Source: a virus
Taxonomy: Duplodnaviria; Heunggongvirae; Uroviricota; Caudoviricetes
DNA length: 22,422 nucleotides
Virus record (IMG/VR): IMGVR_UViG_3300010280_000442
Span: 64,001-86,422 of that record
Reading direction: 5' to 3' (one strand)
The number at the start of each line of letters is the position of its first letter. Positions within the stretch are counted from its first letter, which is position 1. Shown piece by piece: positions 2,445 through 16,957 of the stretch. The notes under the pieces were generated by a model, which searched no databases, was not told where the DNA came from, and worked only from the letters and a program-made list of their open reading frames with translations. Both the position numbers and the translations under genes were made by a program.

Positions 2445-3821
2445 TTATCTTCCAAGCCTCGCTTTTACCGCTGCGATCAGCTTCTCCTGTGTTACATCCT
2501 TCTGTTCCAGCGCCGCCATAACATCCTCATCTACCGTCCCTTTCGTGATGATATGATGAATGGTAACCACCTCAGTCTGTCCCTGCCGCCATAATCTGGC
2601 GTTGGTCTGCTGATACAGTTCCAAACTCCACGTTAAGCCAAACCAGATCAGGATATGTCCGCCCTGCTGGATGTTCAGACCATGCCCGGCACTTGCCGGG
2701 TGGATGAGGGCAACCGGAATGTGTCCGGCATTCCAGTCCCTGATATCTTCACTGGTCTTAATGTCTCTGGGCCGGAATCCTAATTTTACCAGATGCTCTT
2801 CGATCCGTTTCTTATCATGTTTAAACCAGTATGCGATCAGGACGCTTTGCCCGTTGGCCGCTTCGATCAGGTCTTCCAACGCTTCCAACTTGTGCCTGTG
2901 GATTTCACGGGCTGCGCCGTTTTCATCGTATACGGCCCCGTTCGCCATCTGCAGAAGTTTCCCGGAAAGAGCCGCCGCATTGGCGGCATCAATATCCCCG
3001 TCCTCCAGCGGGATCAGCAGGTCTTTTGCCAACATATCATAGAGTTTCTTTTCCTGCGTCCCCATCTCTACCTCGTGGGAAGCCATGACACACTCCGGCA
3101 TATTGAGATAATCCAACGCTTTCATCGAAATTGTGATATCTGAAATCCTTTCGTATATCTGTTCCTCTGCTCCTGGACGCGGTACATACTGGAACACAAC
3201 ACCGGTCTGTGGGTTCATGCTGCCCGGCTTGAAGTATGCTTCCCTGTATCTGCCAATGAAACGTCCCAGACGTTCCCCGCCATCCAAAATACCAATCTCC
3301 GCCCACAGATCCATGAGCCCATTGGAAGTCGGTGTGCCGGTTAATCCTACGAACCTCTTTACAAACGGACGGATCTTGCGTAAGAAACGGAACCTCTGGC
3401 TCTGGTGGTTTTTGAAGGAGGAAAGCTCATCGATCACCACCATGTCAAAATCCCATCGCAGCCCATTTTTCTCGTAATACTCCACCAGCCACTTAATGGT
3501 CTCCCGATTGATGACATACACCAGGGACGGGTGGTTCAGTGCCCCGATCCGTGTTTTCTGGTCGCCCACGATGACGGAGATGGATAGGAATTTCAGGTGT
3601 TCCCATTTCTCGACTTCTGCCGGCCATGTGTCCCGTGCTACCCGGAGTGGGGCCACTACCAGCACCTTGCTCACGTCAAAAGTATCCAGCATCAGGTCAT
3701 TGACAGCCGTCAGAGTGATCGCTGTCTTACCTAATCCCATCGTCAGGAATAGGGCCGCGATTGAATGAGTTTTCACATATTGAATGCAATAATCCTGATA
3801 ATCATGCGGTATGAACTTCAT
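2445..3821 (-). CDS. SNF2-family (phage-type DEAD/DEAH) helicase
   Basis: Motifs MGLGKT, VIDELSSFKN, GLTGTP, HPASAGHGLNIQ, QTNARLWRQGQ. ATGA overlap with the VRR-NUC stop. Confidence 0.92.
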   Translation of the reverse strand: MKFIPHDYQDYCIQYVKTHSIAALFLTMGLGKTAITLTAVNDLMLDTFDVSKVLVVAPLRVARDTWPAEVEKWEHLKFLSISVIVGDQKTRIGALNHPSLVYVINRETIKWLVEYYEKNGLRWDFDMVVIDELSSFKNHQSQRFRFLRKIRPFVKRFVGLTGTPTSNGLMDLWAEIGILDGGERLGRFIGRYREAYFKPGSMNPQTGVVFQYVPRPGAEEQIYERISDITISMKALDYLNMPECVMASHEVEMGTQEKKLYDMLAKDLLIPLEDGDIDAANAAALSGKLLQMANGAVYDENGAAREIHRHKLEALEDLIEAANGQSVLIAYWFKHDKKRIEEHLVKLGFRPRDIKTSEDIRDWNAGHIPVALIHPASAGHGLNIQQGGHILIWFGLTWSLELYQQTNARLWRQGQTEVVTIHHIITKGTVDEDVMAALEQKDVTQEKLIAAVKARLGR

Positions 3822-10863: not shown

Positions 10864-10899
10864 AAAAAGGTCCTGCATGGAGTCATCCACACAAGACCT
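10864..10899 (-). terminator. Leader terminator upstream of the replication operon
   Basis: Minus strand AGGTCTTGTGTGGA-TGAC-TCCATGCAGGACCT-TTTT: 14 bp with 3 G-U pairs that form only on the minus strand. Confidence 0.75.
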
Positions 10900-12188: not shown

Positions 12189-13226
12189 ATGGAAGAAAAA
12201 TCAGCTAAACATGAACAAATTCAAGCCATCAAACACCGACTGAATAGATATCTGACAAAAGCCGGGTTTAGCATTAATCAGCTCACTGAAGCAATCAATA
12301 GATCCGATGAGCCACTGAAAATCAATTACAATACAGTTAAAAATGCCCTCAATTATAATACAGATGCCCTTGATATCACTGTGGCCATTTCCATCTGTCG
12401 TTATCTCCGCTGCGATACCGCTTTTGTTTTTTCACCTCCCGGCACGCCAGAACCTGATTTTGAAGGCTCTTACACAGGTAATGGAAAGTTCATTCCTCTT
12501 GATGATCCAAAATACTTTGGAAAATACAATGGGTACTTTTACTCACCCAATCACCGAAGTGCGGAACTAATCTATTTTGAACTACAAATATCTTCTGAAA
12601 ACAATCGTGTCTCCGCAAAAATGATCTATCACGGCCGCCCTGTGTCTGTTCACGGCAATGTTATGGAAGAAACTCGAATCCTGTACGGTGTCCCCTATTT
12701 ATGCACACGTCATTCTAACATTTATATCATCTTGACAAATGATTATGGCGACTTCTACTTTATTTACTATAACAGGCAGGAATTCAGATCCCACAGTCTA
12801 TACTTTAGAAGAGGGCTGATTGCCACGGCCTCCTCCTTACGGGATCATCCTGTGATGTATATGAGCTTTGTATTGTTCGCACGGCCTGTACCGAAAGAAA
12901 AACAACGATATATTCCTGGTCTGCTTGCAGACGTATCTTCTAATTTTTATATTTCAAAAGATACAGTGGATCAGTTAAGGGTAAAAGAACCTATCCTTGT
13001 TCCCCTATTTGACCAATTTGGATACATACTCGAACATAATAAAGACACCGTCTATTCCATCAACGAAACCCAAATTCTATCTTCTCCAAACAAAACCATG
13101 TCCGAAGAAGATATCATAAAAGCCCTGCTGATATTAAAAGAGCATTCTTTAGCTTCCAAACGAACAGTATATGAAGATATAGAATCTTTTTCTATTTTCA
13201 CGAAAAACTTTCTGCAGCAGCCATAA
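12189..13226 (+). CDS. Hypothetical protein with N-terminal HTH-like segment and aromatic beta-rich C-terminal domain
   Basis: 345 aa, strong RBS and promoter. FSINQLTEAIN...YNTVKNAL...VAISICRYL is XRE-like; the remainder is not recognised. Confidence 0.7.
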   Translation: MEEKSAKHEQIQAIKHRLNRYLTKAGFSINQLTEAINRSDEPLKINYNTVKNALNYNTDALDITVAISICRYLRCDTAFVFSPPGTPEPDFEGSYTGNGKFIPLDDPKYFGKYNGYFYSPNHRSAELIYFELQISSENNRVSAKMIYHGRPVSVHGNVMEETRILYGVPYLCTRHSNIYIILTNDYGDFYFIYYNRQEFRSHSLYFRRGLIATASSLRDHPVMYMSFVLFARPVPKEKQRYIPGLLADVSSNFYISKDTVDQLRVKEPILVPLFDQFGYILEHNKDTVYSINETQILSSPNKTMSEEDIIKALLILKEHSLASKRTVYEDIESFSIFTKNFLQQP

Positions 13227-13264: not shown

Positions 13265-13306
13265 AAAAAGCCCGGCAAAACGCTAGTAAATAACGTTCTG
13301 TCGGGC
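13265..13306 (-). terminator. Intrinsic terminator closing the zinc-ribbon/ncRNA transcript
   Basis: Minus strand GCCCGACAGAACG-N11-CGTTTTGCCGGGC-TTTTT (one mismatch, one G-U). Confidence 0.7.
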
Positions 13307-13655
13307 ATATATCATGTTCCGTAGACTCTCCTGATTATAGAGGTCTGACAGACACACGCAGAAACCTTATGCCGATCCAAGTGACCTTATCACGATCATA
13401 CTAATTCCTGCCGCATACCTACTCAAACGGACATCATATACTTTCAGTTATTTACTAAAACGTTTTGCCGGGCTCCTACTGATCCTTGTCAGTTCCAACT
13501 CCTCGCAAACTCTTGACAACCGGTGCTAACCATAAGGATCACTCGTCACAATTCGCCGCCATCGCACCGTTATCCCCTGAACAGAGCGTCTTTCTTTACT
13601 CCGATGCCTTCTTTCATGCATCCCGCCAGAGCAGCGCCGTTGCCGGTTGTCTCAT
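13265..13655 (-). ncRNA. Candidate structured non-coding RNA / cis-regulatory switch (unassigned family)
   Basis: No convincing ORF. Several long-range complementarities: 25 bp between 13269-13294 and 13447-13474; GACAACCGG/CCGGTTGTC at 13515-13523 and 13643-13651; GATCCTT/AAGGATC and TTGTCA/TGACAA; internal hairpins. Confidence 0.5.
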
Positions 13656-13738
13656 TCTATTCAATTCATTTCTTACTCTTTTATTTCCTATATTTCCTAC
13701 GTCCCTATATTCTTATATCCCATGTATTCTCAATGCAA

Positions 13739-13978
13739 TCATCCCTCCGCCTGCATACGGGAAAGCTTCGCATGGTATACCGCTACTCTTCCCTGCATTT
13801 CTTTCATGCCATCCACATTTTTCTCATACACCGTTACCATACCTTCATCCACCAGTACCCCAATGGTATTCCGGCATTTTCTGCACTCCACCTCTGAATT
13901 GCTTACCGAGCTTTTTATCAGGTATGCGCCACACACCGGACAGTGTACATACCACTTGCTTTCACTATTTGCTCCCAT
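13739..13978 (-). CDS. Small zinc-ribbon protein, Mu Com-like Cys spacing
   Basis: AAAGGAGG RBS; HCPVCGAYLIKSSVSNSEVECRKCRN (CxxC-x15-CxxC). Confidence 0.75.
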   Translation of the reverse strand: MGANSESKWYVHCPVCGAYLIKSSVSNSEVECRKCRNTIGVLVDEGMVTVYEKNVDGMKEMQGRVAVYHAKLSRMQAEG

Positions 13979-14180
13979 GCGAACCCTCCTTTAAGTAATA
14001 CCATGAATCTTTTATCACTCAAACGGATAAGGGAAACAAAACCGTTATTGAGCCTTTGCCGACAGTAAGTTCCGCGCACCGAAGCCGTGCTGCTGCCGAC
14101 CATTCTTCTATGCGGTAAACGCCGGGTATCCTCTGAAACAACAACCTCCGTGCTGATCGCATTCACCGCTTCTGTTCTAT

Positions 14181-14209
14181 ATTATAGTTCTCCAATCTCT
14201 CGATGTCAA
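14181..14209 (-). promoter_or_regulatory. Consensus sigma-A promoter toward the zinc-ribbon gene
   Basis: Minus strand TTGACA (14204-14209), exactly 17 nt, TATAAT (14181-14186). Confidence 0.88.
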
Positions 14210-14302: not shown

Positions 14303-15220
14303 ATGGCTAACAACAACGGTCATACCGTGCCTTTCGAGGCATTGCCCCAGCGAGGCAGAGAAACGAATAAAAGACCTGTTCCGTATAAGACTAATGATAC
14401 TAATGAACATTCCGCTTTTGATGCGGATGATATGAAAATGAATAATACCCTCGGCAAAAAAATCACGCAGGCCAGAAAGCAGAAAAAAATCAGCCAGCGG
14501 GATCTGGCGACTATATTCAAGGATTATAATATAACCGTCAGTTCAGGCGCCATTAGTAAATGGGAAAAAGGAGATGCGCTTCCAAATCCTTATCAGCTGC
14601 TTGCCCTATGTCAGATTCTTGATATTAGAGACGTACTCAAATATTTTACCGGAAGAACTCCTGAACCAGAAGATTATTCACCGGAACTCAGCCAAAAGGG
14701 ATTGAATATCCTTCAACTCTTCAAAGAAACACTGATTGCTTCTGGAAATTATCAGGTAAAAAGCCGCCGAACTGAAAAGCCCTCTTCCCCACGCAAGCCG
14801 ATCCTGGTCAAAGTATTCTCGACTCCGGCTGCCGCAGGCTCCGGCTCTTTCCTTACCAGTGAAGACTACGACATGATTGAATTTGATCCGGCCAATGTCC
14901 CGGAAGACACCGATTTCGGTATCCGCGTAACCGGAGACAGCATGCTCCCCCGTTATGTTCCGGGGCAAGTCGTATTTGTAGAACAATGTAAGGAACTATA
15001 CAATGGCGAAATCGGCGTGTTCGTCTATGATGATAACGCTTATATCAAACAGTATACGGAATCTACGCCTGACGAAGATGATCTTGATTATTACATGACC
15101 AGCGAAGGCGTGGTCAAGCCTAAAATTGACCTTATCTCTCTAAACAGAGACAGAGCCGATTGCGACGTCGATGTACGCCCTGAGAATATGCTGATTATTG
15201 TTGGTCGGGTACTGAACTAA
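14303..15220 (+). CDS. CI/LexA-like repressor: XRE HTH + S24 autopeptidase
   Basis: HTH ISQRDLA...AISKWEKG; Ala-Gly cleavage region PAAAGSG; catalytic RVTGDSM and AYIKQ. Confidence 0.92.
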   Translation: MANNNGHTVPFEALPQRGRETNKRPVPYKTNDTNEHSAFDADDMKMNNTLGKKITQARKQKKISQRDLATIFKDYNITVSSGAISKWEKGDALPNPYQLLALCQILDIRDVLKYFTGRTPEPEDYSPELSQKGLNILQLFKETLIASGNYQVKSRRTEKPSSPRKPILVKVFSTPAAAGSGSFLTSEDYDMIEFDPANVPEDTDFGIRVTGDSMLPRYVPGQVVFVEQCKELYNGEIGVFVYDDNAYIKQYTESTPDEDDLDYYMTSEGVVKPKIDLISLNRDRADCDVDVRPENMLIIVGRVLN

Positions 15221-15493: not shown

Positions 15494-16957
15494 ATGGAAG
15501 TGAGAACAAACATGCTTGATGTTACAGATATTGAACAACTGCGGTTTACAACCGAAATGCAGATATTCGACCGTAAAAGCGCCAAAATAGAAGCGAAGGC
15601 TCTGGCGATTCATATCATAGCATTCGCCAATGCTGATGGCGGCTACATTGCAATTGGAATTGAAGATAACGGCGCAGTTACTGGTATAGATGATCGGGAG
15701 GCGCACATAAACGAACTGCTCCGTGTGCCGTTCGATTACTGCGTTCCCTCCGTTACCGTGGAAACCAGTATTCTGGACTGCACCGACACCAATGGTAATC
15801 CAAACCATATCCTACTCATGCACATTTTCCAGAGCGCTCAACTCCACGCAAACCAGGTGGATGAGGTTTATTACCGTGTGGGCGATAAATCCAAGAAAAT
15901 GAATTTTGAGCAGCGCACCCGGCTCATGTATGCCAAGGGCGGCCGTTATTTTGAGGATATTCCCGTCCGGGACGCCACTTTGGATGATATCGATCTGGAT
16001 TTTGTAAAAACCTATACGGAAAAAATCGGTTATCAAAAAGGACCTCTGGAATATTTGCGAAGCAATAAGGATTTCATTGTAACAAGAAATGGTCAGGAGG
16101 AAATCAGCGGAGCTGCCATCCTACTTTTTGGCAAGAATCCACAGCGTTTTTTTCAACGGGCCAGAGTTCGTTTCATCCGCTATGAAGGCACAGAAGCAAA
16201 AGTCGGTACAGAAATGAATGTGGTGAAGGATGTGATTTTCGAAGGAAAAATCTTAGACATGGTACGGAAATCTACAGAATTCGTCAAGGGGCAGATCAAG
16301 GAGCACACTTTCCTTGGTAAAGACGGGCGCTTTGTTACCATCCCGGAACTCCCTGAGTTTTGCTGGACTGAACTGATCGTAAACGCTGTCGGCCATCGAG
16401 ACTACTCCATCTCTGGAACTGATATCCAGATAAAGATGTTTGACGATCATTTTACTGTGGAAAGTCCAGGCATGCTTCCCGGACTTGTTCGGACGAATAA
16501 TATCCGTGAGATTCATTTTTCACGGAACCCTAAGATTTTTGAATTCTTGCATGAATATGAGTATGTGAAGGAATTCGGAGAAGGTGTCGATCGAATGTTT
16601 CGGGAAATGGAGGACGCTGGGTTGCCGGAGCCGGAATATCGCATTGTGGAATTCATGCTGTACGCAACACTGAAGAATCAGAAGTGGGGGGAAAAACAAA
16701 AAAGCCCCCAAGATACCCCACAAGTCACCCCACAAGATACCCCACAAGTTGAACTTACTAATGAGGATAAATTACTAGTGTTCTGCACTGTTCCCCGCAG
16801 CCAAACCGAGATGATTAAACTGCTTGGGTTGTCTGACCGGAAACATTTTAGAGAAAAGTATTTAAAACCTCTTTTAAATTCTGGATTGTTGGTTATGACA
16901 ATTCCTGACAAGCCCAACAGCCGTAACCAGAAATATGTCAAGGCATCTAACGTATAA
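15494..16957 (+). CDS. AlbA_2 (Schlafen-like) domain + HATPase_c_4 + C-terminal HTH protein
   Basis: FDRKS, IIAFANADGGYIAIGIEDNG; ELIVNAVGHRDYS, VESPG, SRNPKI, EFGEGV; C-terminal RKHFREKYLKPLL...PDKPNSRNQKY. Alternative start 15512. Confidence 0.88.
   Translation: MEVRTNMLDVTDIEQLRFTTEMQIFDRKSAKIEAKALAIHIIAFANADGGYIAIGIEDNGAVTGIDDREAHINELLRVPFDYCVPSVTVETSILDCTDTNGNPNHILLMHIFQSAQLHANQVDEVYYRVGDKSKKMNFEQRTRLMYAKGGRYFEDIPVRDATLDDIDLDFVKTYTEKIGYQKGPLEYLRSNKDFIVTRNGQEEISGAAILLFGKNPQRFFQRARVRFIRYEGTEAKVGTEMNVVKDVIFEGKILDMVRKSTEFVKGQIKEHTFLGKDGRFVTIPELPEFCWTELIVNAVGHRDYSISGTDIQIKMFDDHFTVESPGMLPGLVRTNNIREIHFSRNPKIFEFLHEYEYVKEFGEGVDRMFREMEDAGLPEPEYRIVEFMLYATLKNQKWGEKQKSPQDTPQVTPQDTPQVELTNEDKLLVFCTVPRSQTEMIKLLGLSDRKHFREKYLKPLLNSGLLVMTIPDKPNSRNQKYVKASNV
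16706..16749 (+). repeat. Intragenic 12-bp tandem repeat (about 4 units) encoding PQDT/PQVT linker
   Basis: ccccaagatacc ccacaagtcacc ccacaagatacc ccacaagt. Confidence 0.8.

Follow-up and report, generated by a model that had tools for sequence, protein, structure and literature searches.

A long-range helix predicted to close the terminator hairpin of a structured RNA behind a zinc-ribbon gene in Lachnospiraceae prophages and a conjugative element

A structured RNA of ~398 nt, carried on the minus strand of the viral DNA analysed here (the window, 22,422 nt of IMG/VR record IMGVR_UViG_3300010280_000442), ends in a hairpin whose 3' arm can pair with either of two 5' arms. We lean towards reading the long-range helix as the ancestral basal stem of a long terminator hairpin, to which a redundant second 5' arm has been added, with both conformers terminating transcription; on balance, this is somewhat probable. 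The RNA appears to represent an undescribed family without an Rfam counterpart, homologous RNA being found after a zinc-ribbon ORF at ~45 loci, and the pattern of substitutions suggests that its closing helix is under selection as RNA. A first-pass annotation of this DNA had proposed a terminator/antiterminator strand exchange or, alternatively, the closing stem of a rod-like RNA. The closing stem of a structured RNA is the part of that interpretation that stands, whereas the switching between terminator and antiterminator does not, and the two-armed pairing is probably not an on/off antiterminator switch.

The window is the terminal 22 kb of an 86-kb provirus record. It carries a perfect sigma-70 promoter pair, arranged back-to-back, which recurs in the relatives L012 and L004, and in L004, L012 and the window the RNA lies opposite the CI-like repressor of the prophage (Table 1). 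The minus-strand promoter should drive a RAGATH-35 motif, then the zinc-ribbon ORF, and then the structured RNA. Over the ~470 nt that lie 3' of the zinc-ribbon ORF there is no credible ORF, and this stretch ends in a hairpin and U-tract (13305-13265). The module is the first unit after the derepressed promoter, and in the relatives its RNA leads straight into same-strand genes; to judge from gene order, it would sit behind a derepressed early promoter both in Lachnospiraceae prophages and in an integrative conjugative element (ICE). A convergent gene directly after the terminator is present in the window only and absent there in all relatives, an insertion that is consistent with a true end of the transcription unit. 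The product of this gene, 345 aa long, has no match in Pfam or PHROG. Past it lie an HTH gene and then a replication module with a DUF2800 nuclease, SSB and PolA.

Table 1. Coordinates of the module, its structured RNA and neighbouring features in the window
Feature	Position	Strand	Basis or remark
CI-like repressor gene	14303-15220	+	HTH and S24 peptidase; faces the back-to-back promoter pair
Early promoter	14181-14209	-	TTGACA-17-TATAAT, 12/12 consensus match; repressor-opposed
RAGATH-35 RNA motif, leader of the zinc-ribbon gene	14014-14104	-	RF03056, 42.3 bits; gathering score 38.9
79-aa zinc-ribbon ORF (CPxCG...CxxC)	13739-13978	-	Always immediately upstream of the RNA
Whole conserved structured RNA, ~398 nt	13265-13662	-	blastn blocks kept in relatives; family alignment
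P1 5' strand GACAACCGG	13643-13651	-	Pairs with 13523-13515
P1 3' strand CCGGTTGTC	13515-13523	-	Pairs with 13651-13643
Near-invariant junction AAGAGUUUGCGAGGAGUU	13497-13514	-	Kept in all members
Distal 5' arm (13474-13461) and 11-nt extension (13457-13447)	13447-13474	-	Family-conserved 5' strand of the terminator stem
Variable interior (expansion segment)	13306-13446	-	Imperfect rod by folding
Local second 5' arm GCCCGACAGAACG	13293-13305	-	Bulged in the rod; paired in the compact terminator hairpin
Compact-hairpin loop	13283-13292	-	In the rod, 13294-13284 serves as 3' strand of the extension helix
Shared 3' arm CGUUUUGCCGGGC	13270-13282	-	Partner of both 5' arms
U-tract	13265-13269	-	Can pair with a purine-rich run just 5' of the distal arm
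Convergent 345-aa ORF, family unknown	12189-13226	+	Insertion just past the terminator

From 5' to 3', the RNA consists of a AAUAGAAUGAG motif, a P1 domain, a near-invariant junction and a long terminator hairpin, and all members share these parts, the junction reading AAGAGUUUG ... GAGCUGAAC ... GGAAUCA and the hairpin base being formed by GAGCCCGGCAAAAC paired with GUUUUGCCGGGCUC, followed by Us. The P1 helix shows at least five compensatory sequence variants across the family. The RNA starts 4-80 nt past the zinc-ribbon stop codon. Its length ranges from 190 to 510 nt: the ICE form has ~190-200 nt, L012 264 nt, the window 398 nt, and the groups of L004, L013 and L018 480-510 nt. Two sites account for this variation, one inside P1 and the other inside the terminal hairpin. 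The terminal structured domain that the stem closes spans 90-260 nt; among the short and divergent members, one irregular stem of 66-92 nt makes up the hairpin. The interior of the hairpin measures 26-60 nt in the short and divergent forms, 118-220 nt in the long forms and ~140 nt in the window, and is unalignable between relatives (mean identity 0.28). In the short forms, RNAalifold pairs an AAGAG run with the U-tract.

Relatives were taken from the contigs of protein homologues, from four metagenome loci recovered with a conserved DNA pattern, and from 31 genome loci recovered by protein alignment, and all of them carry a related non-coding stretch directly 3' of the ORF. A covariance model built from the short form (R1) scored L012 at 58.8 bits and, together with a protein search in further genomes, yielded the divergent members L063 (52.3 bits), L064 (45.3 bits), L065 (31.6 bits) and L075 (60.5 bits); it matches the window RNA only partially, at 12.8 bits, because of the large insertions in the latter. 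Six of the 151 sampled Lachnospiraceae genomes contain a match, and the named hosts include Blautia, Dorea, Coprococcus, Roseburia, Fusicatenibacter, Faecalimonas, Dysosmobacter and Holdemanella; the short form of Coprococcus comes resides inside an ICE. The earlier remark that no known riboswitch is matched agrees with our Rfam scans, in which 13265-13662 gave no match up to E 10 apart from chance-level miRNA-like matches to the hairpin, and the RNAs of the L021 short form and of six relatives gave no match, so that the novelty suggested at the time stands. BLAST against annotated phages and plasmids, scans of IMG/VR with the DNA pattern and the protein, and the initial DNA-pattern scan of genome contigs likewise returned no match.

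The 14 + 11 bp pairing of 13474-13447 with 13294-13269 that had been noted before was read directly from the sequence and recovered in a repeat search as two inverted repeats, I3 (13269-13282/13461-13474, 14 nt) and I6 (13284-13294/13447-13457, 11 nt), both 100% complementary. The distal arm is, as had been described, a near copy of the local arm 13305-13293, the two differing at 2 of 13 positions, where a G>A change creates an A.C mismatch and an A>G change a G.U pair; since the 3' arm 13282-13270 is common to both, the local and the distal pairings cannot coexist. When folded as a 226-nt segment, the minus strand reaches -86.1 kcal/mol (z = -5.8), a stability attained by 0 of 200 dinucleotide shuffles, and its minimum free energy structure combines the long-range closing helix with the further inner stems that the first-pass annotation had listed. 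The plus strand of the same segment reaches only -63.5 kcal/mol, as a contribution of G.U pairs on the minus strand would predict.

The local hairpin of the window (13305-13270, 15-16 pairs) folds alone at -20.4 kcal/mol, while the whole domain folds at -81.9 kcal/mol, or at -65.8 kcal/mol with the distal arm blocked. Across six long-form variants, the local hairpins range from -16.8 to -25.7 kcal/mol, all with proper terminator shapes, and the rod is better overall than the compact hairpin form by 12.9-27.1 kcal/mol, the 14 + 11 bp duplex at the rod base amounting to -35 to -39 kcal/mol. In a prefix fold ending at 13283, the future loop of the compact hairpin is already paired with the distal extension. 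The hairpin, with >30 bp in total, has a base of 14 + 11 pairs in the window and of 13-17 pairs in relatives. Both the local hairpin and the long-range helix (13474-13461/13282-13269) end at G-C pairs beside UUUUU (13269-13265), and the shape of a terminator, a GC-rich stem directly abutting a U-tract on the transcribed strand, is present in the window and in all relatives.

Conservation and covariation support the long-range helix as an RNA structure. In 15 members, 203 of 210 cells of the 14-bp closing helix are paired, with both-sided changes at 7 of the 14 pairs (for example C-G to G-C, G-C to U-A and G-C to A-U in L063, L064, L065 and L075), compared with 39-51% of cells paired in slid controls in which the partners were shifted by 1-3 columns. 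These pairs were counted with a custom script in alignment A4, the automatic alignment A3 being excluded because it mixed in reverse-strand hairpin matches. Cognate duplexes of the 3' and 5' arms are more stable than non-cognate ones in L065 and L075, and the upper stem likewise covaries in the short forms. The distal arm is invariant among long forms and covaries with the 3' arm in the four divergent members named above; the extension helix keeps its G.U pairs and carries one A-U to G-C change, in L013. Short forms have G.U at two helix positions that would be C.A on the opposite strand, which fits RNA pairing on the transcribed strand only.

Folding the terminal domain of each homologue gives a long hairpin with this same helix at its base, which is what the alternative of a closing stem of a rod-like RNA had anticipated. 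When the 5' arm is blocked in foldings of short and divergent members, the 3' arm is left without a partner, so that the closing helix is their only terminator stem. The extended long-range helix, comprising 13474-13461/13282-13269 plus 13457-13447/13294-13284, would accordingly be described, from the alignment, as the family-conserved basal stem.

The local arm, by contrast with this family-wide stem, is confined to the long-form clade, where the interior is at least 118 nt long. There, 73 of 78 cells can pair with the 3' arm, and the mean identity is 0.64, against 0.28 in the adjacent interior. With a 3' arm that does not vary in this clade, all changes in the local arm are one-sided; counted by hand in the alignment, 14 of the changed cells keep a wobble pair and 5 disrupt the pairing, which is no clear excess over transition bias, so that the constraint on the local arm rests on conservation and not on covariation. 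Being present in a single clade, the arm counts as one evolutionary event, and the two-armed design appears to be a clade-specific variant of the family terminator stem.

In intrinsic termination, it is the helix forming up to the U-tract during the polymerase pause that matters, and an antiterminator must capture the 5' stem of the terminator (PMC10325885, PMC13401043). Here, the two 5' arms share one 3' arm and pair with it as far as the identical final base pair. Which of them is paired should therefore make no difference to whether polymerase terminates or reads through. We propose that in the window clade the interior expanded to ~140 nt and an imperfect 5' arm (13305-13293) arose beside the 3' arm. 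The rod would zip outward from its pre-folded interior while RNA polymerase transcribes the 3' strand; were the distal arm occupied, the local arm, 11 nt from the 3' arm, would close the compact hairpin of 15-16 bp. Either conformer would present a GC-based helix of at least 13 bp against the U-tract and would be expected to terminate, assuming efficient termination by a helix that encloses a structured interior of 140 nt, and in the released transcript the rod would be favoured by 13-27 kcal/mol. The local arm may thus be a redundant or kinetic back-up gained as the interior grew, and the long stem would make the terminator robust, possibly against processive antitermination. Such a long-stem terminator with redundant 5' arms would end the immediate-early transcript.

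That the distal segment is itself an antiterminator, blocking the local hairpin and causing read-through, is very unlikely, even though the pairings do exclude each other and the long-range one dominates thermodynamically. The long-range helix has the shape of a terminator itself, its last base pair beside the U-tract being shared with the local hairpin, and in short and divergent relatives the distal arm is the only partner of the 3' arm and the helix the sole terminator stem. The analogy with known attenuators points the same way, since it is the 5' stem, not the 3' stem, that characterised ones, including the zipper, sequester; the upstream strand of the zipper takes the 5' stem and loop, the reverse of what is seen here (PMC13401043). 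Less improbable than this, although still quite unlikely, is a two-state switch with an output other than termination, in which the compact form and the rod differ in the fate of the RNA or in the segments they expose. For example, the 25-bp near-perfect duplex at the rod base could be an RNase III site for processing or destabilising the zinc-ribbon mRNA, or the relevant change could be exposure of the 13-nt bulged local arm or of the distal arm. Well-formed, mutually exclusive structures in 6 of 6 long-form variants, the stability of the 14 + 11 bp rod base, and a zipper-like topology of weak upstream pairing, long central imperfect stem and downstream hairpin (PMC13401043) would suit this idea; however, the gap of 13-27 kcal/mol means that the rod is overwhelmingly favoured at equilibrium, whereas zipper states are near-isoenergetic, the short-form relatives have no second state, and no targets were found for the exposed segments. 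A feature acting at the DNA level, such as a miniature mobile insertion with its terminal inverted repeats, or a site of recombination or cruciform formation, is the least plausible of all: perfect 14- and 11-nt inverted repeats do surround a variable, unalignable interior, but the G.U pairs occur on the transcribed strand only, with C.A on the other, the fold energy is strand-asymmetric and the U-tract strand-specific, the helix carries compensatory changes, no further copies exist in the 86-kb record, and the position is fixed relative to the ORF in prophage and ICE alike.

The chief alternative, although one that we regard as doubtful, is a regulated gate, in which the upstream RNA (AAGAGUUUG...GAGCUGAAC...GGAAUCA) and the zinc-ribbon protein control read-through into the downstream genes. 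One way would be for the upstream RNA and the protein together to stabilise a weak antiterminator, in which 13509-13497 pairs with 13474-13464 and so withholds the distal 5' arm; another would be a processive antitermination RNA like conAn, canT or put. Polymerase would then pass to regulators, replication or conjugation genes, as in a delay circuit of the lambda N/nutL/tL1 kind. The module always comes first behind the derepressed promoter with same-strand genes next, as such a gate would; in L012 there is no promoter of at least 9/12 between the terminator and the next gene, in L021 the sole match before the next gene is a 9/12 site overlapping the U-tract, and additional long-stem terminators are found further downstream. 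Against this, moderate promoter-like sites precede the HTH gene in L004 and the window, and the gene downstream in the window is convergent. The ~55 nt that immediately precede the stem do not vary between elements whose zinc-ribbon proteins share only ~43% identity, and this conservation, together with the lack of strong downstream promoters in L012 and L021, hints at regulation of read-through; a plain terminator would explain neither the conservation of the ~55 nt nor the missing strong promoters in those two loci. The succession of a small protein gene and a 200-500 nt RNA mirrors conAn1/conAn2 (PMC8191782), and distant zinc-ribbon members are weakly like the RNA-binding regulator Com; yet five zinc-ribbon members gave no match to PF17362 (ConAn1, pXO2-34) in a Pfam scan with E up to 1, and conAn-type antitermination is resisted by long stems (PMC10325885).

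As for the weak antiterminator, prefix folds pair the junction 13509-13497 with the distal arm 13464-13474 in the window, and likewise in L021, L041 and L065. This pairing is weak (-4 to -12 kcal/mol, versus -11 to -30 kcal/mol for the terminator helix), and compensatory changes seemed visible by eye, but cognate duplexes have no advantage over non-cognate ones (-8.8 versus -8.1 kcal/mol), which leaves the pairing without covariation support, and in the window clade sequestering the distal arm would still leave the local arm to close a terminator. A junction/distal-arm antiterminator is therefore not claimed. Other candidate functions were also rejected. The interior as a guide or antisense RNA found no complementary or repeated cis target across nine loci (all E > 0.08); no reverse transcriptase, TnpB or recombinase is adjacent that would suit a retron msr/msd, a DGR template or an omega or bridge RNA, and the differences between the repeats lack the adenine pattern of DGRs. 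A small ORF behind the GGAG of the junction was dismissed because the spacer is 27 nt in one relative and 28 nt in others, so that its frame shifts relative to the conserved arm.

Several features of the RNA recall the zipper attenuator cATT of pLS20 (PMC13401043). Both have a long imperfect central stem-loop that can be extended by complementary flanks, the interior rod 13446-13306 of the window being extended by an 11-bp and then by a 14-bp helix; in both, a weak upstream pairing (SL-2-like, and here predicted from prefix folds) involves the most conserved sequence, and both lie early in a derepressed operon of a Firmicute mobile element (PMC13401043). In cATT, however, the upstream strand captures the terminator's 5' stem together with its loop and abolishes the U-tract hairpin, its states are near-isoenergetic, and the element precedes the first gene (PMC13401043), whereas in the window the loop and 3' stem are captured, the zipped helix still abuts the U-tract, the states of the clade differ by 13-27 kcal/mol, and the RNA follows a small ORF. 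Capture of the 5' stem and similar energies of the conformers, which define a zipper attenuator, are both absent from the window RNA.

Terminator stems usually have 7-11 bp, and those of >14 bp resist conAn antitermination (PMC10325885). TerR of pLS20 shares with the window terminator a long stem, an upstream A-rich run and a U-tract, but is a simple 15-bp hairpin ending a 30-kb operon (PMC10325885), unlike the window terminator, which closes a structured domain of 90-260 nt as the last element of a short first transcription unit. Both the local hairpin and the rod base have stems of the TerR type in length (> ~14 bp), and by analogy resistance to antitermination is a possible reason for selection on stem length.

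The conAn system, composed of the protein ConAn1 and the conAn2 RNA, resembles the module in that a small protein gene lies directly before a conserved RNA of 200-600 nt, near the start of a derepressed operon in Gram-positive mobile elements (PMC8191782). Antitermination is conferred by an RNA element of 260-600 nt that directly follows the protein gene, and conAn2 of pLS20 has 20-bp inverted repeats around a 238-bp centre (PMC8191782); canT is a cis-acting RNA antiterminator of Tn916 (PMC11658703). The module differs from conAn in its zinc ribbon without PF17362, in an RNA that ends in its own strong predicted terminator, and in that no sequence similarity to it was found. Its part order also matches that of the immediate-early unit of phage lambda, with which it shares no homology to N or nut. 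In lambda, the order PL-nutL-N-tL1 places a repressor-controlled promoter, an RNA element, a small regulatory ORF and a terminator before the delayed-early genes beyond.

The RAGATH-35 motif (RF03056) lies on the same transcript, 540 nt upstream of the structured RNA, and in several relatives travels with both the zinc-ribbon ORF and the structured RNA. Upstream of homologous modules, L013 has a full match (40.3 bits), L021 a sub-threshold one (25.3 bits; gathering score 38.9), and G078 and G085, the genomes of L063 and L065, have RAGATH-35-like matches (33.9 and 27.5 bits) farther upstream of their zinc-ribbon ORFs; a RAGATH-35-like RNA was thus present upstream of the module wherever checked. 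It is a separate motif of 87 nt, and the structured RNA matches no Rfam model, RF03056 included; in L067, a canonical RAGATH-35 (88.8 bits) is present but the structured RNA is not. An 11-nt identity between RAGATH-35 and the interior (13421-13431 versus 14017-14027) was set aside as near chance, 3 of 100 shuffles having given 2 matches.

The zinc-ribbon protein has 13 homologues of 62-99% identity, and distant copies (32-48% identity) precede the RNA in L062, L063, L065 and L075, those of L063 and L065 at 32-34%. The resemblance to Com comes from L075, which matches phrog_6417 ('translational regulator') at 2.8e-7, and from matches to PF10122 (Mu Com-like) below its cut-off of 22.9 bits in L063 (18.5 bits) and L075 (16.9 bits); the window protein gave no match of the PF10122 or phrog_6417 type below E 0.01. 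Its AlphaFold2 model (pLDDT 61) was too poor for a structure search, and a PDB sequence search with the protein returned generic zinc-ribbon noise only.

Mobile elements of Firmicutes control their induction through attenuators, RNA antiterminators and antitermination-resistant long-stem terminators, and the module may add another device of this sort. It defines a conserved arrangement of three parts, in which a leader RNA is combined with a small zinc-ribbon protein and a structured RNA that bears a long-stem terminator, and which is placed at the lysogeny or transfer switch of mobile elements across gut Lachnospiraceae genera, and this three-part module at their induction point is new and experimentally tractable. 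RAGATH-35, an orphan motif, gains a genomic context and a partner RNA. Were the structured RNA merely a robust terminator, it would be ordinary except for being a new RNA family; nevertheless, its two alternative 5' arms would offer a clean test case for the competition between long-range and local hairpins in termination. We also entertain, tentatively and as an unlikely outcome, that RAGATH-35, the zinc ribbon and the RNA together constitute an undescribed elongation control of the conAn, canT or zipper class, with the long hairpin, fail-safe through its two arms in the window, as the gate; if so, the module would control how prophages and conjugative elements of gut Lachnospiraceae pass from derepression to full induction. 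The ICE of Coprococcus comes encodes an ImmR/ImmA-like pair, a UmuC-like polymerase, a sigma-like regulator, a SpaA/thioester adhesin and a type IV coupling protein.

The leader motif RAGATH-35 separates the early promoter from the zinc-ribbon ORF. Its loop, UUUCCCUU, is pyrimidine-rich and could, judged by eye only, pair with the ribosome-binding site of that ORF, AAAGGAGGG, which suggests that the ORF is under translational control. In locus L067 (genome G104), a canonical RAGATH-35 motif (1501-1586, 88.8 bits) is accompanied by neither the zinc-ribbon ORF nor the structured RNA and is overlapped by a different ORF of 97 aa. The C-terminus of this ORF, …GSLIVYEVKK, bears a faint likeness to the VTVYEK motif of the zinc-ribbon protein.

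On the minus strand of the window, an identical 11-mer, UCCGUUUGAGU, is shared by the variable rod interior (13421-13431) and the conserved 3' end of RAGATH-35 (14017-14027). The repeat is near chance, two matches being reached in 3 of 100 shuffles, and no sharing of this kind was seen in the other long forms.

Coordinates of genes and RNA signals in the window and in two related loci, L012 and L004
Feature	Locus	Positions	Strand	Remarks
Second long-stem terminator	window	10868-10899	-	14-15 bp; after HTH gene
Second long-stem terminator	L012	4266-4298		14-15 bp; after HTH gene
Second long-stem terminator	L004	4696-4729		14-15 bp; after HTH gene
345-aa ORF	window	12189-13226	+	converges on terminator
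Ribosome-binding site of zinc-ribbon ORF	window	13984-13994	-	could pair with RAGATH-35 loop (by eye)
RAGATH-35 motif	window	14014-14104	-	between early promoter and zinc-ribbon ORF
487-aa protein	window	15494-16957	+	Schlafen AlbA_2, HATPase_c_4 and Fic-like C-terminal domains

The convergent 345-aa ORF is without a Pfam or PHROG match and is missing from the corresponding position in all relatives, and thus looks like a moron inserted at an operon boundary. Because the window, L012 and L004 all have another long-stem terminator after the HTH gene, terminators of this type are arranged serially between the early promoter and the replication genes. The gene for the 487-aa protein, just downstream of the repressor gene and on the same strand, is a candidate for a defence or regulatory function encoded by the prophage.

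Over loci L021-L051 (e.g. L021 2712-2915), the short-form RNA and the accompanying zinc-ribbon gene differ very little, with a mean column identity of 92%, in Blautia, Dorea, Coprococcus, Roseburia, Fusicatenibacter and even Holdemanella; such near-identity across genera fits a recently spreading conjugative element. In these ICE forms, a sigma-like gene lies downstream of the RNA and is immediately preceded by a conserved hairpin pair, GGAGUC...GACUCC and then CCCGUUC-A8-CGGG (L021 ~3215-3290, L023 ~2999-3060), which may form an additional leader element. The Coprococcus comes ICE (L066 15869-19238, G001 contig 130) has a type IV coupling-protein gene that is apparently shortened (267 aa) and is followed by a reverse-transcriptase ORF, probably representing a group II intron insertion.

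In the divergent member L075, the P1 domain, consisting of P1, an inner helix and a hairpin with a CNRGAA-like loop, is present in two tandem copies (1738-1872 and 1932-2127) followed by a single terminator hairpin, and the small hairpin covaries (UGG/CCA, GAG/CUC, GGG/UCC).
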